The notes beneath the pieces were generated by a model, which was not told the origin of the DNA, did no database searches, and saw nothing but the letters and a program-made list of their open reading frames with translations. Below are positions 19,754-52,447 of a stretch of DNA of 56,274 bases, piece by piece. The stretch comes from a virus (lineage: Duplodnaviria; Caudoviricetes): the IMG/VR virus record IMGVR_UViG_3300029258_003568, positions 1 to 56,274 of that record; one strand, written 5' to 3'. The stretch's first letter is position 1; each line of letters begins with the position of its first letter. The translations under genes were made by a program, and so were the position numbers.

Positions 19754-19757
19754 GGCT

Positions 19758-19771: not shown

Positions 19772-19774
19772 GTG

Positions 19775-26898: not shown

Positions 26899-27080
26899 TG
26901 CTCGACACCGACTATAGTTTCCTGGGCAAGTTTTTGGAGCGGCTTTCTCGCATTGACGGATTCTCAGTCCGGCGTGTGAGCAACCACGCCGCCGGGCGGC
27001 AGCCGAAGGCCGATGGCCGGAAGAAGCGCAAGAGGAAACGGAAGCAGGCAAAGGACAGTCGCCGGCGTAATTGGAAGTAA
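26898..27080 (+). CDS. Small protein with Arg/Lys-rich C-terminus
   Basis: RKKRKRKRKQAKDSRRRNWK; AAGGAG RBS. Confidence 0.6.
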   Translation: MLDTDYSFLGKFLERLSRIDGFSVRRVSNHAAGRQPKADGRKKRKRKRKQAKDSRRRNWK

Positions 27081-27125
27081 GGACGGCCGCCGTCGTCCAG
27101 GCTTCATCGTAGAAAGGCGGTCAAC

Positions 27126-27323
27126 ATGGCACATTATCAATCTGGGCGTCCTATCTCGTACAAGGATTGGGCACACTGGCTGGAGTTGAGTACACAGGTG
27201 GCCAGGGCGGGATGGGTGCGAGATGTGGAGACGCCAGAGGTGAGGGTGGAAGAGTCGATGGGAGATGGTGGAGGTTTTTCCCGTCAGGTCGCTGTGGAGA
27301 GCACGGCGGCCGGGCGGGGGTAG
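27126..27323 (+). CDS. Hypothetical protein
   Basis: ORF with AAAGG RBS. Confidence 0.5.
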   Translation: MAHYQSGRPISYKDWAHWLELSTQVARAGWVRDVETPEVRVEESMGDGGGFSRQVAVESTAAGRG

Positions 27324-27496
27324 CCGCACCCCCCTCCTCCTTTTGCTGGGGCAGGATCGGGTCAGTCAGGCTGCCGGTCCTGCCCGAATCATCCGCCGAT
27401 GTTGCTGCCCGCTAGCCCGACCGCGATACCAAAAGTGGAGCCGCTGGAGCGAACGCGGTAAGTTCCAGAGCGGGCAGGAGGATCGGATGGAAGGAT

Positions 27497-27510
27497 ATTT
27501 CCCGGGAAAT
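27497..27510. promoter_or_regulatory. NBS/parS-like palindrome copy 3
   Basis: ATTTCCCGGGAAAT, intergenic, before the tyrosine recombinase gene pair. Confidence 0.8.
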
Positions 27511-27525
27511 GTAGGGGGGAATTGA

Positions 27526-27783
27526 GTGGGACGACCACGAAGTGATGAGGAGAGGGTTCTCGAGTGTGCGGAGGGGATATCGGCGACGCTGATCAATTTG
27601 GCGGAGCTGGCCGTCATCCAGGACGTGCTACTCAGGCAGGTGCGCCGGCGGGTGTTTGGGACGTCGACGATGGACTCGGTCGCACCGGCGATCGAGCAAT
27701 TGGAAACGATCGCCGCCGAAATTCAGACGGCACGTAGCCTGGCGTTCGAGATGCTGAAAACATTGCAAGAGGGGAGGCAATGA
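27526..27783 (+). CDS. Hypothetical helical protein
   Basis: Coupled to the recombinase gene. Confidence 0.55.
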   Translation: MGRPRSDEERVLECAEGISATLINLAELAVIQDVLLRQVRRRVFGTSTMDSVAPAIEQLETIAAEIQTARSLAFEMLKTLQEGRQ

Positions 27784-28727
27784 GCGTGAGTGAGTCGAGG
27801 AGTATTCGACCCCAGCAGGGTCGGGAGCTGGATCAAAATCCAGCGGCCGTTTACCTGGCCGGCCTGGGTCGGGGCAGCCGGCGGGCGATGCGGCACGCCC
27901 TGGACGTCGTCGCCGACCTGGCCAGCAATGGCCGGGCCGGCATCTGGGATCTCGAGTGGTCCGCGCTGAGGTTTCAGCACACACAGGCGATCCGCAGCCG
28001 GCTGACCGAGGTCTATGCGCCGGCGACGGCTAACAAGACATTGTGCGCGTTGCGCGGAGTACTAAAGTCGGCCTGGCGGCTGGGCCTGATGACTGCCGAG
28101 GATTACCAACGAGCCGCCGACGTGGCGCAGGTGCCGGGCGAGGCACTGCCGGCCGGCCGGCACATCGGCCGGGAGGAGCTGGTTGCGCTGAGAGATGCGT
28201 GCCTCCGTGATCCCGGTGCGGCGGGAGCGCGGGACGCGGCCATCGTTGGGCTGCTGTACACCTGCGGGCTGCGGCGGTCGGAGGTCGTGAGCCTCGACCT
28301 GGCGGACTATGATCGGGAGAGCGGGGCGCTGGCGATCCGGCGCTCCAAGCGGGGCCGGGAGCGGCTGGTCCACGTGGTCAATGGTGCGGCGTCGGCGTTG
28401 GGCGATTGGCTGGCGGCACGTGGCCTCGAGGACGGGCCGCTCTTTTGTCCCGTCCGCAAGGGTGGCCGTCTGGCCGCTGGCCGGATGAGCGGGCAGGCGA
28501 TCTATAACCTGCTCAAGCGCCGGGCCAGCCAGGCGAACCTCGGCGAGGATGTGACCATCCACGACTTTCGCCGGACGTTCATCGGTGAGCTGCTCGATGC
28601 CGGCGCCGACATTGTGACAGTGCAGCAGCTCGCCGGTCATGCCAGCCCGACAACGACGGCGAGGTATGATCGCCGGCCGGAGAAGGTGCGGCGGCGGGCT
28701 GCCGAATTGCTGCATTTTCCCTACTAG
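27780..28727 (+). CDS. Tyrosine recombinase (XerC/D-like)
   Basis: GLRRSE, HDFRRT, LAGHASPTTTARY: complete R-H-R-H-Y catalytic set. Confidence 0.92.
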   Translation: MSVSESRSIRPQQGRELDQNPAAVYLAGLGRGSRRAMRHALDVVADLASNGRAGIWDLEWSALRFQHTQAIRSRLTEVYAPATANKTLCALRGVLKSAWRLGLMTAEDYQRAADVAQVPGEALPAGRHIGREELVALRDACLRDPGAAGARDAAIVGLLYTCGLRRSEVVSLDLADYDRESGALAIRRSKRGRERLVHVVNGAASALGDWLAARGLEDGPLFCPVRKGGRLAAGRMSGQAIYNLLKRRASQANLGEDVTIHDFRRTFIGELLDAGADIVTVQQLAGHASPTTTARYDRRPEKVRRRAAELLHFPY

Positions 28728-29131
28728 GCCCATGTTTCCTGTAGTAAAGCCCGCGCCGCGGAACCCGCGCGCGGGCTATCAAAACCAACCCGGTTCACCC
28801 TGTCGATGAGAGCAGAACTAAAACAATGTCATTGGAGCGACGGTCAAGCGACACTAATTTCGGGATTCGAGAGCGGTTTTGCCAACCACACGCGGCTGGC
28901 GCTCGCGCCCGTCGCGAAAATTTCGGCGCTCGTGCTGGGCAAATTTCGGCGCCGTTGGTGAACATAATTCGATTATGAGAATGAAAATTCTCGATACACA
29001 TCTGGTCACGACGACCCAACCCAAGTCGCGGCGCCGGGGGGGGTGGGTCGTTTCGGCCAGAGAGACGCCAAGGTGTTCGTTTTGGTGCGCGGCTAACGCA
29101 CCAGTTTTGTAGAAAAGTCGGAGACGTTGAA

Positions 29132-29686
29132 ATGGATGACGGATTGGTGGCCGAGGATCTAGGTCCAAACGACCTGCTCCTCTTGTCCTACGACAACAAA
29201 CTGTACGTAATGCCTGCGCCAGATGCAGAGCCCGTAGCGATATTTGATGCACAGCAGGTCATCGAAGCATTAGGGGCCGCAGCGTGCAACAACCAGACCA
29301 AGATCGCAACTCTGAAGGGAATACAGGGCTATACCGTGCAACGATTTGGCGGACCTGAACGATATCGGGCAGCACAAGCTATCAAGATCGCCGAGGAAGC
29401 ATTGGAACTGGCGCTGAGGGTTCTGATTCGCGATACGTCCCTGGAACGAGCTACAAGGAGCGTACAATTACGGTTGCAGGTGATGTTCGACCGGCTGACC
29501 AATGGGGAGGAGGTCCTCTTGAAGCTGGATGACCTCGGCAGTGATCAACTAGCCGGAGAACGCGCGGATGTGTTGATGGCACTGTGTTGCGCCGCCGAGG
29601 TTGATGGCCAGGACCTTATGGTCGACGGTGTCAAGAGAGCCAATAGAGATGTCGGTCGCGGAATGAGATGGACGTTAAAGCTGTAA
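29132..29686 (+). CDS. MazG-like NTP pyrophosphohydrolase domain protein
   Basis: KIAEEALELA...LAGERADVL acidic helix pair. Confidence 0.5.
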   Translation: MDDGLVAEDLGPNDLLLLSYDNKLYVMPAPDAEPVAIFDAQQVIEALGAAACNNQTKIATLKGIQGYTVQRFGGPERYRAAQAIKIAEEALELALRVLIRDTSLERATRSVQLRLQVMFDRLTNGEEVLLKLDDLGSDQLAGERADVLMALCCAAEVDGQDLMVDGVKRANRDVGRGMRWTLKL

Positions 29687-30333: not shown

Positions 30334-31212
30334 GTGGGAGCATACCTGCAGGAACTAGGAAAAAGCATCTCATTTGGCCGATTGTCGCTGATGGGCAAGG
30401 TATTGTGGCCGATGCTCCTGGCCGCGTCGGACGATCAGGGCCGGGGACTGGCCGACGCGGATGTTCTCAAGTGGACGGTCTGCCCAAATGTGGCCGAAAT
30501 CACGATCGATGACATTCCCACCATCCTGGACGAGATGGTAGCCCAAAAGATGATCGTGCTGTACGAGGACTCCCGTGGGCGAGCAATATACCAGATCATC
30601 AACTGGTGGGTTCATCAAAAACGACGGTTCGCTCGCCCATCACTGTACGACGCCCCCGAGGGATGGACGGACCGCGTCAGATTACAACAGGGACGAAAAC
30701 AAACCCTGATAAACTGGGACCAACCGGGGGGATTTATCGGCCAGGAGAGTCTGCCTGAGCCTGAGACGAATAGTGGTAAACAAAACAACGGACAATACGG
30801 TGGACAATACGGTGAGCAATACGAGGGACAACACGGGGGACCTGAACTAAACCGATCTGAACTAAACCAACCTAAACCACCCCCCCCTACCCCCCCCGAG
30901 GGCGGTGGTGGTGGTGGAGATTCTCTAGGACAATGGCTGGAAATCTACGAACAAAACATAACCGAACAAATCCGGCCGGCAGCACGAGAGCAAATTGAGA
31001 CCGTGTTCCGAGATCCACACGTGAATTACGAATTGTGGTCGGATGCCATCGGTATCGCTGTGGCAAACAACCAGTTAAAGCTCTCATACGTGCTGGGAGT
31101 CATCCGCAAGCGCAGAAATGGCAGCGGACCCGGACCGCCCGCTACCGGTAAGAAACCTATCAAGCTGACGGGTAGTTTACCGGGACGAGGGAGACGAGAT
31201 GAGCCAGACTGA
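30334..31212 (+). CDS. Phage replication initiator (DnaD-like C-terminus)
   Basis: SDDQGRG and YQIINWW..Q N-domain; LSYVLGVIRK; precedes dnaB; internal direct repeats. Confidence 0.75.
   Translation: MGAYLQELGKSISFGRLSLMGKVLWPMLLAASDDQGRGLADADVLKWTVCPNVAEITIDDIPTILDEMVAQKMIVLYEDSRGRAIYQIINWWVHQKRRFARPSLYDAPEGWTDRVRLQQGRKQTLINWDQPGGFIGQESLPEPETNSGKQNNGQYGGQYGEQYEGQHGGPELNRSELNQPKPPPPTPPEGGGGGGDSLGQWLEIYEQNITEQIRPAAREQIETVFRDPHVNYELWSDAIGIAVANNQLKLSYVLGVIRKRRNGSGPGPPATGKKPIKLTGSLPGRGRRDEPD
30778..30879. repeat. Iteron-like repeats within the initiator gene (candidate origin)
   Basis: 12-bp ggacaatacggt-type units x4, then ctgaactaaacc x2. Confidence 0.65.
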
Positions 31213-32632
31213 AGCGTTGTTATCCAACCAAGAAGCCGAGCAGAGTGTCCTCGGGGCGTTGCTAATCGACCCGGCGGCGATCTCGAAAGTTTTGACGACA
31301 TTGTATCCCGGTGACTTTTGGGTCAAGCGAAACGAGTGGGTGTACCAGGCGATCTTGGACCTGCACCACGCCGGCACACCGGTGGATCCCGTTACGCTAG
31401 CCGACCGGTTGGAAGCCACTGGGCAGTTGAAGGAACTGGGTGGCGCGGCGTACTTGGCCGAGCTTTTCACGGCCACGCCGACGAGCTTGCATGTAGTGCA
31501 CTATGCCAACATTGTCAGCCGTCTGGCGACCTCACGGAAGCTGGTGCAGGCGGCGACCCGGATCGCCCAGCTGGCACACGACCAGAATAACGACCTGGAT
31601 GCTGTCTTTGCACAAGCCCGCTCGTTGATAGACAGTGTGGCGCCGCTTGATTTGGGCCGGGCGGTGCTATTTTGGCAGGACGCGCTGTCGTGGTACCTGG
31701 ACCGCCAGGGCGAGCGGACCGAGGAGGTCGAGGCCCAGGCTTCGGGCGAGCAGCTCGAGCGGTTGACGTTCCCGTGGATGGCATTGCGGGAGCGGGTGAG
31801 CTGGATTAGGCCGGGCATGATTGTGCTGGTCGGCGCCGAGTCGGGCGTGGGTAAGACAATGTTCCTCGAGTGCTGCGCAGAAGAGTGGGCCAAGCAGGGG
31901 TATCGCGTCGTTTTCTTTCACTTTGAACTCTCTCACCAGGTAATGCTCGACCGGCTGATGTGCCGCCAGGCAGGTGTGCCGATGGCGGAACTGGAGACCG
32001 GAGCACTAGACAACCGGGTGACTGAAACGGTCGCCGAGTTATACGATTGGATTGGCCGGATCAATTACGTGCATTGTCCCGGCTGGCCGATGAGCCGCGT
32101 TGTTGGCACAGCGCGGCAGCTGGCTGCCAAGGGTGAGTGTGACGTGATTATGGTCGATTATCTCCAGAAGGCGTATCTGCCGGCAAAGACGGCAGGCCTG
32201 ACGCCTGCACAGGTCCGTGGCCAGCAGGTGGAGGTCCTTAAGACATTGGCGGAGCAGATGGAGATGCCGATCCTACTGACGTCACAGCTCAACAGGACGT
32301 CGCAGCAATACGGCCGCAAGGTGAGGTTCTCCATCAGAGACACGGGGGAGGCCGACGAGAAGGCGAATGTCGTCCTGCTGCTGGACCGAGAGATCCTGGA
32401 TGCAGACGCCACGATGGAATATGACCTGGATGAGCACCGGCGGGTCACCGTTGAGGCGGAATGTGGAGAATTGTCGCCTATCTTAAAGGTGCGGTGCGAC
32501 AAAAACACCCTCGGTCGAACGGGGGACGATGAACTGTTGATGGATCCGTCCAGATTTTGGATTATGGATAAAGCGAATGTCGCGCAACGGCCTCTGAGTT
32601 GGGACCGGTCGGCGACGATGGAAGCTCTATAA
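31199..32632 (+). CDS. dnaB: Replicative DNA helicase
   Basis: EAEQSVLGALL N-domain, GAESGVGKT Walker A, MVDYLQ, TSQLNR. Confidence 0.92.
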   Translation: MSQTEALLSNQEAEQSVLGALLIDPAAISKVLTTLYPGDFWVKRNEWVYQAILDLHHAGTPVDPVTLADRLEATGQLKELGGAAYLAELFTATPTSLHVVHYANIVSRLATSRKLVQAATRIAQLAHDQNNDLDAVFAQARSLIDSVAPLDLGRAVLFWQDALSWYLDRQGERTEEVEAQASGEQLERLTFPWMALRERVSWIRPGMIVLVGAESGVGKTMFLECCAEEWAKQGYRVVFFHFELSHQVMLDRLMCRQAGVPMAELETGALDNRVTETVAELYDWIGRINYVHCPGWPMSRVVGTARQLAAKGECDVIMVDYLQKAYLPAKTAGLTPAQVRGQQVEVLKTLAEQMEMPILLTSQLNRTSQQYGRKVRFSIRDTGEADEKANVVLLLDREILDADATMEYDLDEHRRVTVEAECGELSPILKVRCDKNTLGRTGDDELLMDPSRFWIMDKANVAQRPLSWDRSATMEAL

Positions 32633-33556: not shown

Positions 33557-34180
33557 ATGAGAGGATTCGTGTTCGTCTCCGGGCTTCTGGTAGTTGGAAT
33601 AGCTGCTTTCGTCCTGGTAAATGTCGCCAGCAGCAGCGGTCCATCGCCGAGTTACCAGGCGGCGATGGAGGCACAGCGGCTGGAGACGGCGGCCAGGATG
33701 TGCCATCTCAAGGTCGTATTTTGGTACGTTCTGGCGGGGATCACCCTGCTCGGCCTGGCCGGATTGGCGGTGGCAGCCGTGCGGGCGACCTGGTCCAGGT
33801 CCGGCTGGATTCGACCCGACGACCGGGGACTCTACCCGGTGGTGCGTGGCCAGGTGGGCAGGCAAACTTATTACCACGACCCGAATCGCCAGCTGGCCGG
33901 GGCGGTCGCTTACACGGCTGGCCGTGATGGCCTGAAGATCCAGCAGATGCTGCCGGCGGGCGCAGAGCACGAACAACTCCGGGTGACCACGCAGGCCCAG
34001 GCGGCGCAGGTCGTCGCGGCGGCCGGGCGCAGCCAGGAGATGAGGCCCAACGCGCGGCGCCTGGTCGAGCGGATGACCGAGCCGCAGCCCGGCCCACCTC
34101 GGTTGCCGGAAGTAGTGACGGAATTGGATGGATCGGAGCGCCACCTGTTGGAGGCGATCCGGCAGGATTGGGATGATTGA
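33557..34180 (+). CDS. Two-TM membrane protein coupled to FtsK
   Basis: Two hydrophobic helices; overlaps the FtsK start. Confidence 0.7.
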   Translation: MRGFVFVSGLLVVGIAAFVLVNVASSSGPSPSYQAAMEAQRLETAARMCHLKVVFWYVLAGITLLGLAGLAVAAVRATWSRSGWIRPDDRGLYPVVRGQVGRQTYYHDPNRQLAGAVAYTAGRDGLKIQQMLPAGAEHEQLRVTTQAQAAQVVAAAGRSQEMRPNARRLVERMTEPQPGPPRLPEVVTELDGSERHLLEAIRQDWDD

Positions 34181-35577
34181 TGCGATTAGGTTCGAGTCAA
34201 AGACGGAATTTAGACAGTATCTTTCGCGGTGTGCGGCATACACTACTCAACCGGGGATTGTATCGCAAATTGGGCAGCGGCGGTGGCGTCCAGGAAGTAG
34301 CCTGGAAGCGGGCCATCGTGCTGGACGATCTCGGGGTCGTCGCGTTTGAAGTAGACACTTTGCGATTGCCGGTCAAGATCGAGCAGCTGCTCGACCCGGA
34401 CGTCACCCATCAGATGCAGGCCGCCCTGGGCGGCCGGCAGGTCAGGGTGACCAACTCGCGCGGGCTGGTCTTTAGCGTTCAGCTTCAACCGGACCCGGGT
34501 CGGCAACTGTCCCGCCTCCCCCGCCGCGTGCGCCTCGACCTCGACGCGCGGCCGGACGGGGTGTACCTCGTGCCGGTGGGCCAGGGTCGGGAGGGCCCGG
34601 TGTGGCGCAGCCTCCTGGAGACGGGCCACATCCTCGTGGGCGGCGAGAGCGGCAGTGGCAAGAGCACCTGGCTCAATGCGATGCTGGCCGCGCTGCTGGC
34701 CGGCCATTCGCCGGAAGAGTTGCAGGTGGCCATTGTTGACCCGAAGCAGGTTGAGTTCCAGGCTTATCGTGGCCTGCCTCACCTGTTCGAGGACCTGGCC
34801 ACCGAAGTGGACCAGGCCGAGGCGTTGCTGGCTCGAGTGCTGTTCGAGATGGATCGGCGGGCGGTTTTGTTCTCTGGAGTTGGGGCGAAGAACCTGGGCT
34901 TGTACAACGACAGAGTTGACGAGCCGTTGTCTCTGGTTCTGCTGGTCATCGACGAGGTGACTGACATTGCCCTGCAGGCCGGACTCAAGAGTGACTTTTA
35001 TCGGGACCTCATCCGCCTGGCCAGCAAGGGCCGCGCCTTTGGCCTCGTCCTCGTCCTCGCCACCCAGAACCCCAAGGCCGAGGTGCTCAACACGCTGATC
35101 CGGGGGAACTTGAGCACGCGGATCGCTTTTCGGGTGACGACCGTCGAGCACTCGCGGGTCATCCTCGGCGAGGGCGGCGCGCAGACGCTGCCGCGTACGA
35201 TCCGAGGGCGGATGGTGACCCGGCTCGGAGGTGATGAGCTGGAAGAGCTCCAGGGCTTTTACATCTCCGACACTGAGATCGCGGCGCTGGCCGGCCGGCT
35301 GCGCGATGACGGGAAGGATGCACAGGCAATGGTGATCTCGGACCTGGAACGAGAGATGGCGCTGTTCGCGGTGGAAGAGTTGGCCGGAGAGTTCCACACT
35401 GACACGATCTGGCAAGAATTCACCGACCGCGTTTCGAGGCGGGAGGTGCAGCGCCTGGCCAGGCGGTGGGAGCACCTGGGATGGCTGACGCTGCAGCGTA
35501 ATCCGGCGGAGGCGCGTTGGGTGACAGATAAGCTACTTGATTTGGTCACCGGAGAGGAGGCCAATGATGAGGGATAG
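34177..35577 (+). CDS. FtsK/SpoIIIE-family DNA translocase (TraB-like)
   Basis: HILVGGESGSGKS, VDPK, LLVIDE, GRAFG..LVLATQ, C-terminal winged helix. Confidence 0.92.
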   Translation: MMRLGSSQRRNLDSIFRGVRHTLLNRGLYRKLGSGGGVQEVAWKRAIVLDDLGVVAFEVDTLRLPVKIEQLLDPDVTHQMQAALGGRQVRVTNSRGLVFSVQLQPDPGRQLSRLPRRVRLDLDARPDGVYLVPVGQGREGPVWRSLLETGHILVGGESGSGKSTWLNAMLAALLAGHSPEELQVAIVDPKQVEFQAYRGLPHLFEDLATEVDQAEALLARVLFEMDRRAVLFSGVGAKNLGLYNDRVDEPLSLVLLVIDEVTDIALQAGLKSDFYRDLIRLASKGRAFGLVLVLATQNPKAEVLNTLIRGNLSTRIAFRVTTVEHSRVILGEGGAQTLPRTIRGRMVTRLGGDELEELQGFYISDTEIAALAGRLRDDGKDAQAMVISDLEREMALFAVEELAGEFHTDTIWQEFTDRVSRREVQRLARRWEHLGWLTLQRNPAEARWVTDKLLDLVTGEEANDEG

Positions 35578-35741
35578 AGTGGTGCCAAAGATCGCATCCT
35601 ACGCCCGACGAATCCGACGTGACCCGGCGGGGAATGTGTACCGCCGAAGGGCTTTTCTTTTTCCTGCCGGCCGGAAAATCGTTCAACGTTTGAGTCAGGC
35701 TGGATTGAGGCCCGAGCGGGGATCGACCGGGAGTAACGACT

Positions 35742-36284
35742 ATGCTTTGTGATGGGTGTCTGCTTTTGATAGGAAATGGTTTGTCAGAGGAAGTGAGACG
35801 AGTTCTCTATCGTCTGAATACCCTGAAAGAGACGACCATCCGTGACCTGGCCAGGGACATGGATCAGAGCGTCTACGAGACGCGAAAGGCCTTGGTCTAT
35901 CTCAAGGGAGCAACTCTGAGCTGGGGGGATTGGTCGGCCTACAGTGTCTCTCCGGCAGGTGAGAAATTTATTGAACTACAGGTTCAGGCTGAAAAGCCCG
36001 AGGTGATCGCCGATATGCTATGCGACACTTGTCTGTTGGAGATCGGTGAGGCGCTCTCGGAACGAGAGGCCGATATCTTGGGGTGTTTTTCAAGTCGGCC
36101 GATAACGCGCCATCAGCTTGTGGTGGACACGGGACTCAGCCTGCACAAGGTGCGGGAAGGTCTTATGCTTCTGCAAGGTGCGCGCTTGGTAGGAGTGCGC
36201 TCTTCCCGCGTGTTTCACCTTTCTCCAGAGGGACAACGATTGGATTATTTGTTGCGTAAGCAGCTGGTTTCATCGGGAGGATAA
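35742..36284 (+). CDS. Tandem winged-helix protein (TubR-like position)
   Basis: Two ~90-aa repeats, each MLCDxCLL-x-IG followed by wHTH and SPxG wing. Confidence 0.7.
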   Translation: MLCDGCLLLIGNGLSEEVRRVLYRLNTLKETTIRDLARDMDQSVYETRKALVYLKGATLSWGDWSAYSVSPAGEKFIELQVQAEKPEVIADMLCDTCLLEIGEALSEREADILGCFSSRPITRHQLVVDTGLSLHKVREGLMLLQGARLVGVRSSRVFHLSPEGQRLDYLLRKQLVSSGG

Positions 36285-36285
36285 T

Positions 36286-37533
36286 ATGAATAAAAATCGA
36301 AGTGTGGACTATTCATTCGTGGGGGCCGGCGAGGGCGGGGGCCGGATCGCGGCGACTTTTGGCCGGATGGGCTACGTCGCCGGTGCGATCAATACGTCCT
36401 CCAGCGACCTAGATGGCCTGAAACGGTTGCCGGCCAGTCACCGGCTGCACATCCACACCGGCCTGGGGGTCGGTGGGGCGGGGCGAGATCCATCGGTGGG
36501 CCGCGATGCGGTGCTGGCGCACGAGGTGGAGATCCGCGATTTCATGCGCGACCTCGTGAGCCAGGCAGACCACGTCATGCTATGCGTCGGTGGTGGCGGG
36601 GGCACCGGCACCGGGTCGATGGGCGACCTGGCCCGCATCCTGATCCGGGATCTTGGCCGACCGGTGGGAATCATTTACACGCTGCCCGGCGACGAGGGGA
36701 CGTCAGCTCTGGCTAATTCTGTCCGGGGGCTGCGCGGGCTCTACCAGCTCGCCGAGGCGGGGTCCGTTTCGCCTCTGGTGCTGGTGGACAACGCTCGTGT
36801 CGAGGAGCTCTTTCCCGAGGTGAGTGTAGGCCACCTTTGGGGCAAGATCAACCAGCACATTGCTGACGTGTGGGACTCATTCAACAGGTTGAGCACCCGC
36901 CGGGGCTGGCAGGTCGCCACTCTCGACAGCATGGACTATTATCTGAATGTGGTCCAGGCCGGCAAGTGCGCCTCGTTGGGCCGGGCTATCATCCAGGATC
37001 TCAAGAGTCCGTTGGCTCTAAAGCGAGGGGTGAGCGAGGCGATGGCCTCACTGGTGCGGGGCTACGACCTGGCCACGGCCTCGGCGATCGGCGTCATCGT
37101 CATCGGCTCGGAGGGTACGTTGAACCATCTGCCGAAAGATTATCTCGGAGATGGGTTCAGAGCCATCGAAAGCATCTTGAGCGGGGGACATATTGTGCGG
37201 GGGGTTTATGCCGACGAGCGATACCGTCACCTGCACGTGTACGTGTTCGCCAGCGGGCTAGACCTGCCGGCGAGGGTCCACGACCTGGCCGCTGAGGCTC
37301 AGGTGCAAATGAACGCGCTGCGTGAAAAGATGTCACAGCGGAGCGACCCGCTGGACATGGACTTTTTGGAGAACAACTGGCTGGGCTTGTCGCGTCAGCA
37401 GCAGGGCAACGGCAACGGCCTGGACACGGCGTTCTCGTGGATGGACGGGGGCGGTGGCTCGGGCCGGCGGTTGCCGGCGAGGAGTGGGCTGGCGGCGTTG
37501 GCGGAGCGGAAAAAGAGGAGAGGAGGGAGGTAA
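36286..37533 (+). CDS. Tubulin/FtsZ-superfamily GTPase (TubZ/RepX-like)
   Basis: GAGEGGGRIA, AINTS..DL, GGAGRDP..G, GGGGGTGTG signature, LVDN, T7-like TLDSMD, basic C-tail. Confidence 0.92.
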   Translation: MNKNRSVDYSFVGAGEGGGRIAATFGRMGYVAGAINTSSSDLDGLKRLPASHRLHIHTGLGVGGAGRDPSVGRDAVLAHEVEIRDFMRDLVSQADHVMLCVGGGGGTGTGSMGDLARILIRDLGRPVGIIYTLPGDEGTSALANSVRGLRGLYQLAEAGSVSPLVLVDNARVEELFPEVSVGHLWGKINQHIADVWDSFNRLSTRRGWQVATLDSMDYYLNVVQAGKCASLGRAIIQDLKSPLALKRGVSEAMASLVRGYDLATASAIGVIVIGSEGTLNHLPKDYLGDGFRAIESILSGGHIVRGVYADERYRHLHVYVFASGLDLPARVHDLAAEAQVQMNALREKMSQRSDPLDMDFLENNWLGLSRQQQGNGNGLDTAFSWMDGGGGSGRRLPARSGLAALAERKKRRGGR

Positions 37534-37534
37534 G

Positions 37535-37840
37535 ATGCAAAAGATCATTCATAAGGGCAGGACATTCGTGGCGTACGCCGTAAAGGAGCTCGTCCGCAGG
37601 ACGGGACGGGGACGGTCTGCGTGGGCGCGCTACCTGGTAGGCCGGTTGGCCGGTGGCACGCGGTTCGAGTTTCTGTTGGGCTTCCTCTCGGCGGCTGAGG
37701 TGCGGGCTTATGTTGGCCGGCTGCCGGCAGGCTGGTCGGCAGTCCGGGCGATGTGGAATCAGATGATCGAGCGGCTGGGCGTGGCGCAGGCGCTGGTTCT
37801 CGGCGATGGGCTGCGGGAGAACGTGCTGGCTTTGGTTTAG
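37535..37840 (+). CDS. Basic hypothetical protein
   Basis: GGAGG RBS; lies between the tubulin and ParB genes. Confidence 0.6.
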   Translation: MQKIIHKGRTFVAYAVKELVRRTGRGRSAWARYLVGRLAGGTRFEFLLGFLSAAEVRAYVGRLPAGWSAVRAMWNQMIERLGVAQALVLGDGLRENVLALV

Positions 37841-37852
37841 GGAGGAAAGGCA

Positions 37853-40084
37853 ATGGCTCGTCCAACTCACAAGGCTGTCGCCGACGAATTGAACGTGCCC
37901 ATCAGCTCGGTGGCTATCGTGAGGGAAGTGCTGGCCGGCACGTCCGCTGATGCCGTGCGAGCCCGGCGGGATCGCGGCATATCAGATGCCGCCCGTTGGC
38001 TGGCGGAACGTCGACGCTGTGCGGATGCGGCGGCCGCCATCTGCAATTCTGTAATCGCAGCGATACGGGAGATCGATGGAATCCCGATGGAGGAAATCAT
38101 GAGAACTGGAACACTTTTTATCAGGGTATCCTTGGACAGGATCGAAGACAATCCATTCCAAACGCGGATCGAGTATGGCGACGTCGGTGAGTTGGCCGAA
38201 TCGTTGCTCAAGATGCGGCCTGTCCGACCCGAAACCTCCGGCCTTCTCCAGGTACCGCCGGCGAGGATCGTCCTCAATGGCCACGTACTCAACCCCGCCG
38301 AATACGGCGGCGTCGCCCCCTGCCTCGGCGACGAACCCCACGCCCGCGTCCAACTCGCCGCCGGCCACCGGCGTTATCGGGCGTTTCAGTCTCTTCACGA
38401 AGGACGCGACGAGTATGCTACTTTTCCTGTCGACGTCCAGGTGTTGGACGACCGGGCGATGGCCGACATCGCCTGGGAGGAAAATGCCAAACGTAAGAAC
38501 TTGAACGCAATCGAGGAGGCGCAGGCGTTGCGCCGGGCTATGGAGCGTTTCGGCTGGAGCCAAGCCAAGGTGGGCCTGCGGTGGGGGTTGAGCCAATCGG
38601 CAGTGGCAAACAAGCTTAGATTGTTGGGGCTTCCCGAGGATGCACAGGCGGCTATTCGTAGCGGCCAGATCTCGGAGCGGCACGGTCGCGCTCTTCTCAA
38701 AGCTGCCGGCAAATCGGAGCGCATCTACGAGCGTGCAGCTGAGGATATCCTCCCGCCGATGGTTGTTCTTGAAATAGAGAAGAAGGCGGAGGCGCATTCG
38801 TTGGTGAGTAAACAGCATTTTTGGAAGGTGACTGCCGAGGGCGATCCTCGATGTCGGGTTTGTGGTGAGTCGGCAGCCGCCATGACTTCGGGGAAGGTGT
38901 ATTGGGATGGGAAGGAGGATTTTCTTTGCCTGGCGTGCTATCGGGCTGCGACCGGTTGGGTGCCTCCATCTGTGGCTCAGGCTGAACAGGTTATCAAACG
39001 GGCGATCCAGGCTGAAAGCCGGCGGCTGGATATGGCCGAGTGGCCGTTTGATGTGGTGGTCGGCCAGGGCGATTCCCAGATCAGATCGGCGAGGTGTGTT
39101 GACTGTCAGTTTCGGGAGGCACAAGATGATGTGGAGTGGTGTTTGGATGCGGCATGTTTCAAGAGAAAGAGAGTACATTGGTATGGTTATCTCAGGGCCC
39201 GGCTGCACGAACATCTCCTGAAAATTTTCGGAGATACTGCGCCGGTAGATGATGGATATGACGGGTATGACCTGCGCAGCACCGACGAGGTCGACGTTGC
39301 GCTGGTGAGGGATGGCATTTGTGCGCCGGGCAAGTGCAAGCGGCTCAGATTCCGGTATTACACGTATAAGACAGTGCATTGTCTCAAGCCGTGCGCCGAG
39401 TTGCCGTTTGGCTACAATTGCAACAACAGTTCGTCACACCGGGCTTGCCAGCAGCGGTATCTCAAGTCTTTGCAGAATAAGGATGAGGCGGTAGCCGAGG
39501 ACCAGGCCCGGCAGGAAGCTGCCGGGCGGCGGGAAAGGGTGGGGCAATATCTGGCTCGGGCGCAACAAAGCTTGGCCCGGGCATTGCTGGATAAACATGA
39601 TGGAGCATGGCGGGGGTTAATTCGGCTGTTTGATAGTCCAGTGCCGGGGAAGGATCAATCGGCAAGCGATTCGGCAATGCAGATTGCCAGACGGATGCTT
39701 GATGCACAGGCCAAGTATATCGAGTGGACTATCTGGAACGATGAGGATTCCGTTGAACAGGCCATTGGTCGGGTGAGGGATCATATGGCAAAGCTGGGGG
39801 TGGCCATGTTGCCCAGCCTCGATGATTTGATTCGCAAACTCGAGCGGATCGAACGCTTTGTCCTCTACGATGCTTTTCATCCGCGATCCGATCTGACCCT
39901 GGAGCAGGTCGACGGCAACATGGATAATGTGGACAAGATAGGCGTCCAGCTGGAGGAGATGTACCAGGCACAGCAGATCTCGGCTGATGATTACGATCTT
40001 TTTGCCAAGCGTCTGGCGGCACTCGAGCAGGCCCTGAATATTTCCCGGGAAATGGCTCGTATAGACTCGGCGGATTCTGAATAG
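37853..40084 (+). CDS. ParB/Noc-family CTPase with long Cys-rich C-terminal extension
   Basis: NPFQTR, AGHRRYRA, ENAKRKNLNAIEEA, HTH SQSAVANKLRLL...SERHGRAL. Confidence 0.9.
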   Translation: MARPTHKAVADELNVPISSVAIVREVLAGTSADAVRARRDRGISDAARWLAERRRCADAAAAICNSVIAAIREIDGIPMEEIMRTGTLFIRVSLDRIEDNPFQTRIEYGDVGELAESLLKMRPVRPETSGLLQVPPARIVLNGHVLNPAEYGGVAPCLGDEPHARVQLAAGHRRYRAFQSLHEGRDEYATFPVDVQVLDDRAMADIAWEENAKRKNLNAIEEAQALRRAMERFGWSQAKVGLRWGLSQSAVANKLRLLGLPEDAQAAIRSGQISERHGRALLKAAGKSERIYERAAEDILPPMVVLEIEKKAEAHSLVSKQHFWKVTAEGDPRCRVCGESAAAMTSGKVYWDGKEDFLCLACYRAATGWVPPSVAQAEQVIKRAIQAESRRLDMAEWPFDVVVGQGDSQIRSARCVDCQFREAQDDVEWCLDAACFKRKRVHWYGYLRARLHEHLLKIFGDTAPVDDGYDGYDLRSTDEVDVALVRDGICAPGKCKRLRFRYYTYKTVHCLKPCAELPFGYNCNNSSSHRACQQRYLKSLQNKDEAVAEDQARQEAAGRRERVGQYLARAQQSLARALLDKHDGAWRGLIRLFDSPVPGKDQSASDSAMQIARRMLDAQAKYIEWTIWNDEDSVEQAIGRVRDHMAKLGVAMLPSLDDLIRKLERIERFVLYDAFHPRSDLTLEQVDGNMDNVDKIGVQLEEMYQAQQISADDYDLFAKRLAALEQALNISREMARIDSADSE
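40040..40053. promoter_or_regulatory. NBS/parS-like palindrome copy 4
   Basis: ATTTCCCGGGAAAT in the 3' end of the parB-like gene. Confidence 0.75.
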
Positions 40085-40094: not shown

Positions 40095-41189
40095 ATGAAA
40101 CAGCAGCTTTCTCTTCTCGAGAATATGAGACTCGATTTAGAGGGTGCAATGGAACTGAGTCTCGACAGCCTGCAGGAATATGGCCGGCGATACCGTCACT
40201 GGGCTGTGGCTTACAGCGGCGGAAAGGACAGCTCAAGTACCGTAACCTTTGTGGCCTGGGCCATTCGATCTGGTCTGGTGCCGCGCCCGGAAACACTGAC
40301 TGTGCTCTATGTTGATACGCGAATGGAGTTGCCACCACTGCAACAGACGGCGATGTGTTTGATGAGAACACTGGAAAGCCAGAAATTCAATACTCAGGTG
40401 GTCGTGCCAGAGATGGATAGCCGGTTCATGGTCTACATGCTTGGGTACGGCGTGCCGCCTCCATCGAACACATTCCGTTGGTGTACGTCCAAGATCAAGG
40501 TCGAGCCGATGTATGCAGTATTGGATGGATTGAGGCGAGAGCATGACGAAAAGTTTTTGATGATTACCGGTGTTCGCCTCGGCGAGAGTGAGGCACGGGA
40601 CCAGCGCATTGCCATCAGCTGTTCGAAGAAGAGCGGTGAGTGTGGCCAGGGTTGGTTTCAGATCTCACCACCCGATAGCGTGGCTGATGTACTTGCTCCG
40701 TTGCTGCATTGGCGTTTGTGTCATGTATACAATTGGCTCTACGATGACGGCTCTATCGGTCATGGATACGATGTGCGAGACATCGGCGTCGTCTATGGAC
40801 TTGGGGAAGTGCGTACCGGTTGTGTTGGATGTCCACTGGCCTCGCGAGACGTGGCGCTCGAGCGGTTGTTGTGGCAGGATGAAGAAAATGGTTGCACGTG
40901 GCAGCATCTCCGGTCGCTGCTTGAACTCAAACCGTTGTATCGTGAGTTAAAGAAGCCACGTTGGCGCAAACGGAAAGCGAAACCGGAGAAACGCCAGGAT
41001 GGCCAGTGGTCAAAGAATGTTCAGCGGATGGGTCCGCTTACGATGGAGGGCCGCGCTTATGGCCTGGAGCAGGTGTTGAACATCCAAGAAAGATCGCGAG
41101 TTGATCTCATCAATGCAGAGGAAGAGACGCGAATTCGTGAGATGTGGTCATTGGATATGTGGCCACACCAATACCGGCTATCCGGCTGA
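40095..41189 (+). CDS. PAPS-reductase-family (DndC-like) protein
   Basis: AYSGGKDSS PP-loop, RWCT..IK, GVRLGES..R, RTGCVGC. Confidence 0.85.
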   Translation: MKQQLSLLENMRLDLEGAMELSLDSLQEYGRRYRHWAVAYSGGKDSSSTVTFVAWAIRSGLVPRPETLTVLYVDTRMELPPLQQTAMCLMRTLESQKFNTQVVVPEMDSRFMVYMLGYGVPPPSNTFRWCTSKIKVEPMYAVLDGLRREHDEKFLMITGVRLGESEARDQRIAISCSKKSGECGQGWFQISPPDSVADVLAPLLHWRLCHVYNWLYDDGSIGHGYDVRDIGVVYGLGEVRTGCVGCPLASRDVALERLLWQDEENGCTWQHLRSLLELKPLYRELKKPRWRKRKAKPEKRQDGQWSKNVQRMGPLTMEGRAYGLEQVLNIQERSRVDLINAEEETRIREMWSLDMWPHQYRLSG

Positions 41190-41240
41190 CAAGCGATGGC
41201 AAATTGGTAGAGCAGGCGCTTTTGTTGTGAGGGTATATTG

Positions 41241-42101
41241 ATGAAACCACGGCCGGCATTGCGGTATTTCGGAGGAAAATGGCGACTTGCGCCGTGGATC
41301 ATCGGTCATTTTCCCGACCACGTTTGCTACGTCGAGCCGTTCTGTGGTGCGGCTTCGGTGTTTCTGCGAAAGAGGCCTGCTCAGTTCGAGGTGATCAACG
41401 ATCTCGATGGTGAGGTCGTCAATTTCTTTCGGATGCTGCGGGATCGCACTGATGAGTTCATTTATGCTATCCAGGCGACGCCGTACAGCCGGCGGGAATA
41501 CGAGCTGGCCTGGGAGTGGGAGAACATTGGCTCGGAGCTTGATCCGCTGGAGCGGGCCCGGCTATTCTACATTCGGTCATGGCAGGGCTGGGCATTCCGG
41601 GAGGCTCAGAGGGGGAGAGGGGATGTTGTTGTATATCCTACCTGGCGGATCCAGCATTCAAACAATCGCGGGAAGTCGGTAATAACTGACTGGAACAAGG
41701 TCGATCACTTGCCTGCACTCGCCGGGCGGCTCAAGATGGCGTTTATCGAGAACGATGATGCTATCGACATCATTGGACGGTATGACCGACCCGAGACGTT
41801 ATTCTACCTGGACCCGCCGTATCTGTCCGAACTGCGGTCGGAGCGATGGCGGCGGGCGTATCATTGCGAGGTGGACCGCGACTATCACGTCCGGCTTCTG
41901 GACCTCCTGATGGAGATCCGGGGGATGGCGATCATCAGCGGTTATCCGTCCGGGCTGTACAACGAGACGTTGGCGGGTTGGCACCGTTTCGAGACGCGGT
42001 CTCGGACGACAAATACGTCGAATCCGACGACTGAGGTGATCTGGGTATCGCCGTCGGCAACCGAAGCTAGGCTGCCGTTGTTTCAGAATTGCGGCGTGTA
42101 A
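41241..42101 (+). CDS. DNA adenine methyltransferase (Dam/D12 class)
   Basis: YFGGK, YVEPFCG, DPPY. Confidence 0.92.
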   Translation: MKPRPALRYFGGKWRLAPWIIGHFPDHVCYVEPFCGAASVFLRKRPAQFEVINDLDGEVVNFFRMLRDRTDEFIYAIQATPYSRREYELAWEWENIGSELDPLERARLFYIRSWQGWAFREAQRGRGDVVVYPTWRIQHSNNRGKSVITDWNKVDHLPALAGRLKMAFIENDDAIDIIGRYDRPETLFYLDPPYLSELRSERWRRAYHCEVDRDYHVRLLDLLMEIRGMAIISGYPSGLYNETLAGWHRFETRSRTTNTSNPTTEVIWVSPSATEARLPLFQNCGV

Positions 42102-45192: not shown

Positions 45193-45334
45193 GTTGGTGA
45201 AGATCATGCAAGTCGGCGGCAAGTACTGCTTGAGGTACCGTGTCGGATCCGTCACGAACCCGGCTCAAGAGGGTTGGGCGTACGAAACCGATTTGGATCT
45301 TCCTCTCCTACAGGAGTGCAGTGATGGGCATTAA
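45140..45334 (+). CDS. Small SH3-like hypothetical protein
   Basis: FRIEELVRIKKTGELVKI pattern. Confidence 0.45.
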   Translation: MAREFRIEELVRIKKTGELVKIMQVGGKYCLRYRVGSVTNPAQEGWAYETDLDLPLLQECSDGH

Positions 45335-46166
45335 GACCCAGATCGAGTGGGCGGATAGTACTCAGAACCTGATGATGGGATGCGATGGCTGCGAGTTGTG
45401 GTCCAGAACGCGGGGAGGTACCTGCTACGCGGCGGATATAATCCGTCGGTACGCCGGCCGGCGGGGCTATCCGCCGGCGTTCGACCGGCCAACCGTTTTC
45501 CCCGCGCGCCTCGGTGCCATGCTGCGCTGGCCGGACTTGACCGGGACAGAGCGGCCGGATAAGCCCTGGCTCAACGGTTATCCTCGTATTGTTTTCCTGA
45601 ATGACATGGGGGACACCTGGACTGAGAGCCTCCCTCTGGATTGGCTCGATCCCTACGTTGAGCCGATGGCCACAAGTCCTCACATTTATATGATCCTGAC
45701 GAAGCGTGCCCGGCGCATGGCAGCCTATTTCCAGCGCCTTGGTTTTGTCCCGGCCAATTTCTGGCTGGGTGTGACGGTCACTGGCCGGGCCACTCTGGCC
45801 CGGTGGCGTACCCTGCAGGCCGTGCCGGATGCTACCCGGTTCTTGTCCGTCGAGCCGCTGCTCGAGGACCTGGGTCAGCTGGATCTCTCTGGCCTTGGTG
45901 CAGTCCTGGTGGGTGCCGAGTCCGGCTCTGGGGCCCGGCGGATGGAGCCCGCCTGGGTCGACAATGTGTTCGATGCTGCCAGGGTTGCCGGGATCAACTT
46001 CTTTTTCAAGCAATGGGGAAAGTTGGCCAACAATCCGGATCCGGCAGATCCCACGGCCAGGAAAAATGGCGGGATCTCGAAGGGTGGAGCTCAATATCGG
46101 GGTCGAACCTGGCGGGAGATGCCCCCTATAAGGAAATCATCAGAGAAAAAGTTGATTGACAAGTGA
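45324..46166 (+). CDS. DUF5131 (phage Gp37/Gp68) family protein
   Basis: TQIEWADST.N..GC.GC..CYA, NDMGD, LTKR, FLSVEPLL, GAESG, FFFKQWG. Confidence 0.88.
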   Translation: MGIKTQIEWADSTQNLMMGCDGCELWSRTRGGTCYAADIIRRYAGRRGYPPAFDRPTVFPARLGAMLRWPDLTGTERPDKPWLNGYPRIVFLNDMGDTWTESLPLDWLDPYVEPMATSPHIYMILTKRARRMAAYFQRLGFVPANFWLGVTVTGRATLARWRTLQAVPDATRFLSVEPLLEDLGQLDLSGLGAVLVGAESGSGARRMEPAWVDNVFDAARVAGINFFFKQWGKLANNPDPADPTARKNGGISKGGAQYRGRTWREMPPIRKSSEKKLIDK

Positions 46167-47760: not shown

Positions 47761-48320
47761 CGTGGGTCGATCAAGAAGAGTCGTTGCCCTGGGAGCAGCG
47801 GCTCGATGAGACGACAGAGCAATACCGCGCATTTTGCGATTACCGGGATATGGCCAAGGCCAGTCTTAACGCGCTTTGGGAATATTACCGGTCCACTTGC
47901 GCCGATCCACCGACCAAACGTCTGCGGACGCTCGCCGAGTGGAGCAGCAACTTCAGCTGGGTGGCTCGGCGAAAAGAGTGGTGGGCATTTGCCGACGAGA
48001 TCAAGAGGGAAGCGGCCCTGTTGGCCACCAGGGAGATGGGCGAGCGTCAGGCTCGCGACGCCGTCAAGATCCAATCGGCGGCGATGGCAATTCTCGATCT
48101 ATTGGCCGGCTACGACGAGATGACCGGAGAGTTCGTTTTGAGAGAGGATGCCGAATACCGGTTCCAGGACGTGGTGCGGCTTTTCAAGACCGGCGTGGAG
48201 GCTGAACGCGTCGCCCGTGGCGAGGCGGCGACCATCATTGAGAAGCGCCGGCGGAAAACAGATCTCTCTCAACTCTCCGATGAGGAGCTGGATGCGTTGG
48301 CCGACGAGGAGGACGACTAA
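47757..48320 (+). CDS. terS: Terminase small subunit (putative)
   Basis: PWEQ..ET..QY.AF..YRDM, WS..FSWVAR, DLSQLSDEEL; directly upstream of terL. Confidence 0.7.
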   Translation: MTWVDQEESLPWEQRLDETTEQYRAFCDYRDMAKASLNALWEYYRSTCADPPTKRLRTLAEWSSNFSWVARRKEWWAFADEIKREAALLATREMGERQARDAVKIQSAAMAILDLLAGYDEMTGEFVLREDAEYRFQDVVRLFKTGVEAERVARGEAATIIEKRRRKTDLSQLSDEELDALADEEDD

Positions 48321-52445: not shown

Positions 52446-52447
52446 CA

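Follow-up and report, generated by a model that had tools for sequence, protein, structure and literature searches.

Why should a tailed phage keep a tubulin next to a DNA pump, and do the two form one machine with the DNA-binding proteins encoded around them? The question is raised by positions 33557-40084 of the virus record IMGVR_UViG_3300029258_003568 (Duplodnaviria; Caudoviricetes), whose full 56,274 bp were analyzed and are called the window below; they make up a complete virus genome with direct terminal repeats, rated 100% complete. Six genes follow one another there on the + strand with gaps of -4 to 164 nt, and encode a two-pass membrane protein, an FtsK-type DNA translocase, a winged helix-turn-helix (wHTH) protein, a tubulin, a small protein of 101 residues and a long relative of ParB (Table 1). 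A first-pass annotation had taken all of these but the small protein for parts of one DNA-positioning system. The genes are indeed present where it placed them, contiguous, tightly spaced and on one strand, and their domain families agree with its description. As a system, the five parts come apart into a four-part cassette and an independent ParB module.

We read 33557-37533 as a self-contained mobile cassette that would join a TubZRC-like segregation pair to a membrane-anchored FtsK pump for double-stranded DNA (dsDNA), with ParB as a second, independent module, and we hold the chances for and against this reading to be about equal. The single-chain TubR-like protein would mark the DNA of the element, and TubZ filaments would move the marked DNA through their basic C-terminal tail. 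The two-pass partner would hold an FtsK protein devoid of a membrane domain at the membrane or the closing septum, where FtsK would pump copies still lying across the septum, leaving one in each cell of a filamentous host.

Linkage and mobility of the four-gene cassette

The evidence that carries this reading comes from related loci. Metagenome and genome collections, scanned once each, yielded 37 of them, 30 with a tubulin 41-81% identical to that of the window; gene presence was scored on those 30 by tblastn (E <= 1e-3), and near-duplicate loci (L088/L089 and L081/L105) make the independent cases fewer than the counts. The wHTH gene lies directly upstream of the tubulin gene in all 21 loci with at least 400 bp of upstream sequence, and FtsK is linked in nine of the ten that reach at least 1 kb beyond the wHTH gene, while two further short contigs (L095, L107) end within FtsK. 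Homologues of the two-pass protein, 183-207 residues long, are encoded directly upstream of FtsK in 6/6 relatives examined. At one locus (L116), FtsK stands downstream of the tubulin gene, next to a serine recombinase, the order being rearranged and the linkage kept. The conserved co-occurrence by which the annotation proposed to check its system thus holds for the membrane protein, FtsK, the wHTH protein and the tubulin; it fails for ParB, which is adjacent to the tubulin in none of the 11 relatives with at least 1.5 kb of downstream sequence.

The surroundings of the cassette are wholly different from one locus to the next. Downstream flanks encode DJ-1, GH113, aldehyde ferredoxin oxidoreductase, prismane, a P-type ATPase, acetyl-CoA synthetase or a histidine kinase, and upstream flanks two serine recombinases (L114), a TumE toxin, a GntR regulator and a NACHT protein (L088) or a SIR2 protein (L094); the cassette therefore moves as a unit. 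Its carrier is a phage here, and elsewhere it lies in elements beside serine recombinases or beside cellular genes, in Anaerolineae and Caldilineae genomes. Purifying selection acts on each of the four genes, with median ratios of non-synonymous to synonymous divergence (dN/dS) of 0.29 for the membrane protein (10 pairs), 0.18 for FtsK (15), 0.21 for the wHTH protein (21) and 0.135 for the tubulin (15). At the level of sequence, these comparisons show the four genes to be a conserved, inherited, selected and mobile unit.

In the window, the stop codon of the membrane protein gene overlaps the start codon of FtsK (TTGATG), and the two genes are translationally coupled; gaps of 164, 1, 1 and 12 nt follow. 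The tight spacing noted by the annotation is real, no terminator-like site was found on the + strand between 33000 and 41333, and an operon covering 33557-40084 is plausible. The small open reading frame (ORF) between the tubulin and ParB genes appears to be an accessory gene: it belongs to no Pfam, PHROG, PADLOC or NCBIfam family, a search of the Atlas gave no usable match, and a relative was found only in L114 (36% identity). A defence function for the cassette was considered and is unsupported, since PADLOC gives only generic FtsK-domain matches (SspH C-terminus, HerA) and no match on the membrane protein, the wHTH protein, the tubulin, the small ORF or ParB; the NACHT, SIR2 and TumE genes adjoining some relatives do not rescue it.

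A probable tubulin partition pair and its candidate centromere

The tubulin passes the PF00091 model (38.9 bits against a cut-off of 33) and ends in a short basic tail. A profile of its family (20 homologues) searched against the Protein Data Bank (PDB) matches RepX (4ei7) at 2.7e-41, FtsZ at 1.5e-32 and Bacillus thuringiensis TubZ at 5e-27. Not one of the 33 closest homologues in a large protein collection, unnamed or labelled FtsZ by their source, carries the FtsZ_C domain, which is present in the true FtsZs lower in the same list. These comparisons place the protein closer to TubZ/RepX than to FtsZ, by a modest margin, and it shares only about 25% identity with plasmid tubulins of the RepX type. 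The glycine-rich nucleotide loop GGGGGTGTG and the acidic pair D214/D217 at the T7 position are invariant in 20/20 tubulin sequences. The tubulin was found in only 4 of 401 genomes sampled from the class, as expected for a mobile element.

The 180-residue wHTH protein is an internal duplication in which a CxxC motif opens each half; Pfam offers only DprA_WH, at 18.8 bits and below the cut-off of 22.9. Its AlphaFold2 model, made with 16 sequences (mean predicted local distance difference test score, pLDDT, 91.2; predicted template modelling score 0.86), has two H-H-H-H-E-E-H repeats. Aligned with VIA-align, the model matches TubR (3m8f_B; Z 12.4, root-mean-square deviation 2.0, 89/99 residues; also 3m9a, 3m8e and 6aht), in a tie with the top row, RosR (Z 12.9), and with MarR-type repressors; Foldseek returns weak tandem-winged-helix rows (such as ScpB and RPC62, E about 1e-3), TubR not being among them. 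The modelled fold thus fits TubR without singling it out. What singles it out is the layout of the locus, because iterons stand before the wHTH gene in relatives, which is the tubC-tubR-tubZ arrangement. Single-repeat versions of 86-91 residues occur in three more distant relatives (L116, L117 and L098). Fold and layout suggest that the protein is a single-chain, tandem-duplicate TubR-like protein and a predicted centromere binder.

The iterons of the relatives count four to six units and differ between lineages: four GATGATTTG-type units accompanied by GCCATCN runs at 11 loci, six copies of GGTCACACG in L114, GGAGTAACTC units in L116 and CAGAATCGAAT units in L117. Between the same pairs of loci (L082-L113), the wHTH genes have diverged about twice as much as the neighbouring tubulin and FtsK genes, at synonymous and non-synonymous sites alike. 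High divergence together with lineage-specific iterons would fit a diversification of specificity, the centromere binder co-diversifying with its iterons. In the window, the slot of these arrays is taken by the 164-nt spacer, and neither there nor elsewhere near the cassette were tandem or clustered repeats found; the sole candidate centromere feature of the spacer is an imperfect 20-bp palindrome at 35659-35678 (TTTTCCTGCC/GGCCGGAAAA), which is unique in the genome.

Type III partition, made up of TubZ, TubR and tubC and in some cases TubY, is exemplified by pBtoxis, pXO1 RepX, pBc10987 and the Clostridium botulinum phage c-st. The cassette resembles these systems in its tubulin-fold GTPase, with RepX as best match and a basic C-terminal tail, in the small gene immediately before it, whose winged-helix product has TubR among its best, though tied, structural matches, and, in the relatives, in the iterons that precede this gene. 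With c-st it also shares the phage carrier, a type III system on that phage being cited in the available text of PMC8597652. It differs in that its TubR is a single-chain tandem duplicate with a CxxC opening each repeat, in that no MerR-like TubY was recognised at the cassette, and in having a soluble FtsK motor and a protein with two transmembrane segments as conserved partners. The window itself, moreover, has no iterons, its tubulin is remote from those of RepX type, as said above, and the host phylum would be Chloroflexota, not Bacillota. According to PMC7762940, TubY connects these systems with membranes, so that a second component bound to the membrane has a parallel among known type III systems. 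Our literature search found no publication on TubZ, TubR and FtsK together, nor, among the papers listed, one on TubZ in Chloroflexi. The paper on IME8 deals solely with a plasmid tubZ replicon, and the Tyrovirus paper makes no mention of TubZ, FtsK, tubulin or translocase.

Other tubulin loci came to light in the same searches. The tubulins of IMG/VR (L001-L080; at least 179 contigs), many of them marine, lie between small membrane proteins and near a terminase; this family apparently represents another system, in a phage-tubulin context that is apparently undescribed. A deltaproteobacterial genome (L117, 10296-13654) has a gene for a single-repeat TubR-like protein and one for a tubulin (26-27% identical), followed by a DUF5131 gene, 32% identical to the window gene at 45240-46166, and by a tyrosine recombinase; no FtsK is present in that stretch. 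On the Paenibacillus polymyxa plasmid pSb31l (L148, 3911-11314), genes of TubR size, for a TubZ-like protein and for a MerR protein (TubY-like) lie amid conjugation genes for a replication-relaxation protein, a TcpE-family membrane protein and a type IV coupling protein. By its gene content, this is another tubulin partition locus beside DNA-transfer ATPases. Three phage records were also examined for a tubulin paired with FtsK, and none of them shows it: SPBc2 and phi3T match neither family in Pfam, and phage G has a tubulin but no FtsK above the cut-off. A TubZ from a Paenibacillus plasmid, used as query, retrieved phage G alone.

A motor proposed to act at the membrane: inheritance, lytic growth or transfer

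Three domains make up the FtsK-like protein: one at the N-terminus, the motor, and one of about 90 residues at the C-terminus. Its Walker A (GSGKS) and Walker B (DE) motifs are invariant in 8/8 aligned sequences. It matches phrog_1358 (6.3e-66) and the FtsK motor 2ius in the PDB (1.5e-35), as well as a clostridial 'DNA translocase coupling protein' (6o1z, 2.7e-22). The NCBIfam equivalog cut-offs lie above its scores (FtsK, 123.7 vs 1566 bits; TraB, 24.5 vs 800; EssC, 90 vs 778), and on this basis the protein belongs to FtsK/SpoIIIE at the domain level only. It has no membrane domain of its own, the maximal 19-residue hydropathy being 1.49 with no segment above 1.6. The C-terminal domain may be a winged helix, and in L084 and L085 its counterpart forms an extra, separate ORF that lies past FtsK and before the iterons. 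Descent of this domain from a common ancestor with the TubR-like repeats was considered and rejected (hhalign probability 0.1).

A membrane anchor for this motor could be supplied in trans by the two-pass protein, whose hydrophobic segments span residues 1-29 and 48-78. The protein has no Pfam, PHROG, NCBIfam or PADLOC family and no usable match in the Atlas search; its homologues have in common the motifs RG(F/L)(A/Y)P and NPN and an acidic C-terminus. A complex of FtsK with residues 79-207 was predicted with a score of 0.43, the best of three controls giving 0.00; contacts agreed by at least 53% between runs, and the pLDDT of the partner was at least 45. The mark used in this test is reached by 58 of 80 solved complexes and 2 of 110 mismatched pairs, and scores of at most 0.60 that pass it belong to seven of those 80 complexes and to both passing mismatches.

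Phage genes of the FtsK/SpoIIIE type are otherwise known from cluster J mycobacteriophages and Bacillus phages, where they are annotated 'FtsK-like DNA translocase'. Their motor is 24-38% identical among the matches listed; no listed record covers 80% of the query, and the N-terminal domain, the C-terminal domain and the two-pass partner are particular to the present clade. A profile of the FtsK protein found only one distant relative in IMG/VR. Our literature search gave no tested role for phage FtsK-like genes, only accessory mentions in the available texts of bioRxiv 10.1101/2024.02.16.580700 and PMC8597652. Here, such a motor is genetically tied to a tubulin partition locus of understood logic and to a dedicated membrane partner, and the compact 4-kb unit, which can be moved to a test replicon, makes the role of a phage FtsK directly testable. 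If our reading is right, type III partition extends to Chloroflexota, to a single-chain TubR and to a second motor.

Several observations weigh against the joining of a segregation pair to a pump. Neither the window nor its closest relative, L095, has an iteron array before the wHTH gene. The linkage itself has an exception in L099, which keeps the wHTH and tubulin genes and has no FtsK; L099 is 95% identical to L086 from just past FtsK onward and unrelated to it before, with the break about 2.4 kb into the locus, and it therefore lost FtsK by recombination. FtsK was found beside more distant tubulins at 0/7 metagenome and genome loci (26-38% identity), and the best 80 of at least 179 IMG/VR tubulin loci (29-35% identity) include none with a match to FtsK, the wHTH protein or ParB, the absence of FtsK being the part that counts here. 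The link is thus limited to one tubulin clade and could reflect inheritance instead of function. As for the pump, its C-terminal 90 residues or so have only a weak match (HTH_29, E 0.093), and the prediction lends weak support to the complex with the membrane protein, the fold of which is uncertain. The host is probably a filamentous bacterium of the Chloroflexi type (Anaerolineae/Caldilineae), as judged from relatives alone. Finally, the cassette lies within the long rightward replication or early block of an integrase-bearing phage, and may have a role in the lytic cycle instead of in inheritance.

Two of these points, the restriction to one clade and the loss of FtsK in L099, would be expected if the TubRZ genes were an ordinary partition locus and FtsK and the membrane protein unrelated accessories, kept together by descent only; FtsK-like genes are indeed found in 341 phage records, most of them without a tubulin. 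However, the link has survived 33-55% divergence of FtsK, the change of order in L116 and a full turnover of the flanks, and we regard linkage without shared function as improbable.

The position of the cassette bears on a role in lytic growth, in which the TubR/TubZ pair and the membrane-held FtsK would, after induction or infection, guide the replicating phage DNA to a site on the membrane or to a central position, without any part in inheritance; PhuZ acts in this way in jumbo phages, and the actin-like AlpC/AlpA pair in the integrated Corynebacterium prophage CGP3. On its own strand the cassette shares a block with the replication initiator, DnaB, the DNA-modification genes and the terminase, no terminator-like site being found on this strand, and the phage has a serine integrase, so that its prophage may be integrated and need no partition. 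In four sequencing runs from three studies, difference-free contigs (word depths 7-68) continue without a break through the integrase region, 5995-20000, from which we take the free form to be abundant. None of the five runs listed as containing this sequence is of RNA, and any of the five may be a source of it. No junction of an integrated form was seen in the contigs of these runs, and contigs cannot show the absence of that form. In the available text of PMC8597652, protein clusters of FtsK/SpoIIIE and of tubulin/FtsZ are enriched after mitomycin C induction in a hot-spring mat, where a Chloroflexi-associated virus carries FtsK/SpoIIIE; the study draws no connection between the two genes.

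The early-block position, the integrase and the abundant, unbroken free form favour action after induction; cassettes standing alone in cellular contexts favour the maintenance or transfer of small elements. The latter observation speaks against a purely lytic role, because in relatives the cassette stands among cellular genes, with no phage genes visible, and is still under purifying selection; the iteron-TubR-TubZ architecture, moreover, is that of a plasmid partition locus. We therefore consider positioning in the lytic cycle to be unlikely, though worth keeping in view. The integrase also bears on the third lifestyle, besides lysis and integration, that the annotation had offered: because the genome has a serine integrase, this proposal is not borne out.

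The taxonomy of the relatives and the form of the motor bring in another possibility, that of conjugation-like spread, to which the pumping of phage DNA between cells in the annotation corresponds. The nearest tubulin relatives are in genome bins titled Anaerolineales, Anaerolineae and Caldilineae, and the names of two ParB relatives refer to Chloroflexi and Anaerolineae bins. Anaerolineae and Caldilineae are known as multicellular filaments. FtsK could act there as a TraB and the two-pass protein as an Spd-like partner, passing dsDNA through septa or cell contacts independently of virions, with TubZ delivering DNA to the pore. No tubulin is known in TraB/Spd elements. Like the TraB/Spd system of Streptomyces (pSVH1) and actinomycete integrative conjugative elements, the cassette combines an FtsK-like motor with a small membrane partner on a small mobile element in a probably filamentous host, and the motor has a TraB-like architecture with a C-terminal domain resembling a DNA-binding one. 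There is no relaxase nearby, as in TraB/Spd elements, and in the available text of PMC4447253 TraB and Spd membrane proteins form a multiprotein translocation complex for intramycelial spreading. The relatives L114 and L116 have large serine recombinases as neighbours, as small integrative elements do. Against this stand the TraB score cited above, since the protein is nearer to FtsK and EssC motors; the lack of any peptidoglycan-binding or pore-forming partner recognised at the locus; and the carrier, a tailed phage that makes virions and so has less need of such a route. Transfer of this kind is in our estimate distinctly unlikely.

A related proposal has been made for a phage. In the available text of Pathria et al. 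2012 (PMC3357382), a 'DNA translocation operon' is described in Bacillus phage 0305phi8-36, parts of which recur in SPO1, Gamma, Cherry and WBeta; the phage can do without it in the laboratory, and cell-to-cell propagation of the phage, by virion-free movement of DNA between cells, was proposed for it. Like the locus studied here, that operon unites in a phage block a translocase, membrane anchors and a cytoskeletal gene, there of the MreB/actin type. It differs in having a relaxase-like first gene, a VirB6-like protein and an actin fold in place of the tubulin fold, and the same text describes no FtsK, tubulin, centromere binder or iterons. Set beside it, the cassette is a further example, in another phylum and with other membrane parts, and would suggest that a DNA-moving filament and a membrane ATPase are a recurring functional pair. 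A more daring combination would have the TubR-like protein mark phage dsDNA, TubZ carry it to the cross-wall and the anchored FtsK pump it into the neighbouring cell of the filament, a virion-free spread during which ParB, bound at the four Noc-type sites, would prevent closure of the septum on the DNA in transit, or expression of that DNA; we think it improbable that all of this is true.

The ParB module and the rest of the phage genome

The gene that completes the locus encodes a 743-residue relative of the ParB/Noc-type cytidine triphosphate (CTP) clamps, in which an extra N-terminal segment of 82-87 residues, resembling a helix-turn-helix (HTH), is followed by the ParB N-domain, the HTH, three cysteine clusters and a helical C-terminal region. 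Its scores are mixed: Pfam ParB_N stays under its cut-off (16.5 vs 26.3 bits), NCBIfam parB_part is over (76.8 vs 58.45), and the Noc equivalog, nucleoid_noc, gives 111.5 bits vs 315. In the PDB it matches Noc (7ol9, 1.6e-18); with a model of pLDDT 85.4, Foldseek returns Noc, ParB and KorB at 5e-10 to 3e-5 over about 200 columns, and no match is listed for residues 300-743 in this search with the whole model. The long-ParB family has some 40 full-length members, 34-57% identical, and conserves the boxes DNPFQTR, GHRRYRA and EENAKR, the HTH, 12 cysteines in three clusters and the helical C-terminal region. Aligned homologues start at window residue 88 in 20 of 21 cases. Since the ATG codons at 37853 and 38099 both have GGAGG-type ribosome sites, a long and a short form are possible. 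The extra N-terminal residues (37853-38113) give a weak match to a KorB domain (17.9 bits) and recur at the C-terminus of a homologue, P0124.

Palindromes spread around the genome had been matched to this protein in the first reading, and four exact copies of the 14-mer ATTTCCCGGGAAAT are there; 0.18 would be expected if up to two mismatches are allowed, and none of 100 shuffled sequences has as many as four. The sequence is identical to the 14-bp core quoted for the Bacillus subtilis Noc-binding site. In an alignment of ParB and Noc read against the available text of PMC7383237, the protein has three of the four Noc-type specificity residues, namely Q173, K179 and R201 (Caulobacter numbering), with G at 184, not K; according to that text, a lysine at either 179 or 184 suffices. 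We infer that the protein would bind the four sites. Only one of 126 other loci contains the palindrome (L120). The sites lie 12-16 kb apart, an arrangement that speaks for a KorB-like function in regulation no less than for one in partition.

The protein shares with Noc, chromosomal ParB and KorB the N-domain boxes and the HTH, and its sites are the Noc-site core. It is unlike them in its 440-residue C-terminal extension with 12 conserved cysteines, in the absence of a ParA and in being borne by a phage; from Noc in particular it departs by its equivalog score and by the glycine at 184, and most of its homologues are without the N-terminal peptide region. A clamp of Noc-type specificity that has no ParA, a large cysteine-rich extension and four dispersed perfect sites is of interest in its own right.

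Whether this clamp is a partner of the tubulin, as the annotation had it in coupling a CTP clamp to a tubulin motor, can be asked of its relatives. Besides the lack of adjacency in 11 of 11 cases, a profile of the long ParB gave 11 matches in the 401 genomes (E <= 1e-30), ten in ORFs of about 290-390 residues and one in a 615-residue ORF (G192); none is in the four genomes that encode the tubulin, and G192 has no tubulin match. A canonical short ParB is encoded 7.5 kb from the tubulin in L082. In other viral contigs, ParB relatives follow ParA (L123) or an AAA_25 ATPase (L118, L120), not tubulin. The proposed coupling is thus not supported, and by these distributions ParB is a module separate from the four-gene cassette. 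Rather than as an adaptor of the tubulin, it is more likely to act as a CTP clamp without ParA that would load at the four sites and silence or position DNA; two of these sites stand before recombinase units.

One form of coupling would nevertheless explain the missing tubC iterons, namely that ParB, bound at the four palindromes, serves as cargo adaptor or co-adaptor of the tubulin motor in place of ParA. The gaps of 1 and 12 nt from tubulin through the small ORF to ParB would suit it, as would the want of iterons before the wHTH gene in the window and L095 and the dispersal of the ParB sites around the genome. So would the absence of ParA: the annotation saw no ParA or MinD anywhere, and in the complete genome neither PF01656 nor PF13614 gives anything above cut-off, PF13614 without any match and PF01656 with only 13-bit P-loop matches inside DnaB and FtsK (cut-off 25.4), whereas both models give matches in 14/14 control genomes. 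The ATPase partner of type I partition (ParABS) is accordingly not found here. In L123, ParA is encoded directly upstream of the ParB relative and downstream of FtsK, the slot held in the window by the wHTH and tubulin genes; an FtsK-like gene and one for a small membrane protein lie 2-4 kb upstream of the ParB relatives in L118, L120 and L123, all three tubulin-less contigs. This occurrence of FtsK and a membrane partner beside different partition modules is the one observation that keeps the idea of a motor swap alive. Yet the relatives of ParB neither adjoin the tubulin nor share genomes with it, they pair with other ATPases, and the wHTH adaptor is intact in the window; we judge a hybrid of this sort very improbable.

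Table 1. Features of the window, in positions of its 56,274 nt
Feature	Positions	Strand	Basis or remark
Putative ParB site 1	7234-7247		perfect ATTTCCCGGGAAAT
Tape measure	10596-13286		
Large serine integrase	18308-19753	-	
Putative ParB site 2	19758-19771		in 21-nt gap before serine integrase start
Putative ParB site 3	27497-27510		upstream of tyrosine recombinase unit
Tyrosine recombinase, Xer-like	27780-28727	+	PF00589, 1.1e-28
DnaD-like initiator	30334-31212		
DnaB	31199-32632		
Two-pass membrane protein, 207 aa	33557-34180	+	hydropathy
FtsK/SpoIIIE-type P-loop DNA translocase, 466 aa	34177-35577	+	PF01580, 1.2e-30
164-nt spacer	35578-35741		slot of tubC-like iteron arrays in relatives
TubR-like protein, 180 aa, two winged-helix repeats	35742-36284	+	AlphaFold2 model
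TubZ/RepX-like tubulin GTPase, 415 aa, basic C-terminal tail	36286-37533	+	PF00091
Small ORF, 101 aa, accessory gene	37535-37840	+	no family
Long ParB/Noc-type CTP-clamp relative, 743 aa	37853-40084	+	HTH_ParB, 2.6e-23
Putative ParB site 4	40040-40053		within 3' end of ParB gene
Large terminase	48320-49888		
Protease-capsid fusion	52358-55342		
Portal gene			among virion genes
Tail tip protein			among virion genes

The rest of the genome is that of a temperate phage with virion genes of the siphovirus-like type and with no DNA similarity to known phages. The Xer-like recombinase that the annotation placed upstream of the locus is confirmed by its PF00589 match; the dif-like site that was to accompany it was not found, an inverted-repeat scan of 26900-29200 giving only short GC palindromes within genes. 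Three AATTTCGG-containing repeats lie at 28856-28953, in the spacer 3' of this recombinase. Downstream of it comes the replication block, with a DeoR-type HTH gene, the DnaD-like initiator and DnaB; within the initiator gene, a 12-nt unit is repeated 4.3 times at 30790-30841, a likely origin.

Directly 3' of ParB, at 40095-42101, a DndC-like 3'-phosphoadenosine 5'-phosphosulfate (PAPS) reductase (phrog_12882, 1.8e-110; DndC, 1e-32) and a Dam-type N6-adenine methyltransferase form a DNA-modification pair, which was not seen beside ParB relatives elsewhere. The N-terminal region of the protease-capsid fusion (residues 75-236) matches phrog_14859 (2.8e-26), among PHROG families annotated RNA ligase. 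The gene at 3447-6173, for a 908-residue protein of no known family, contains an in-frame tandem array at 4600-6041, with 162-nt units (54 residues) in about four plus three copies of 88-94% identity. At the left end of the window (1-204), contigs from all four runs show a joint that goes back from 204 to 1, which is probably the terminal repeat or a circular assembly junction.

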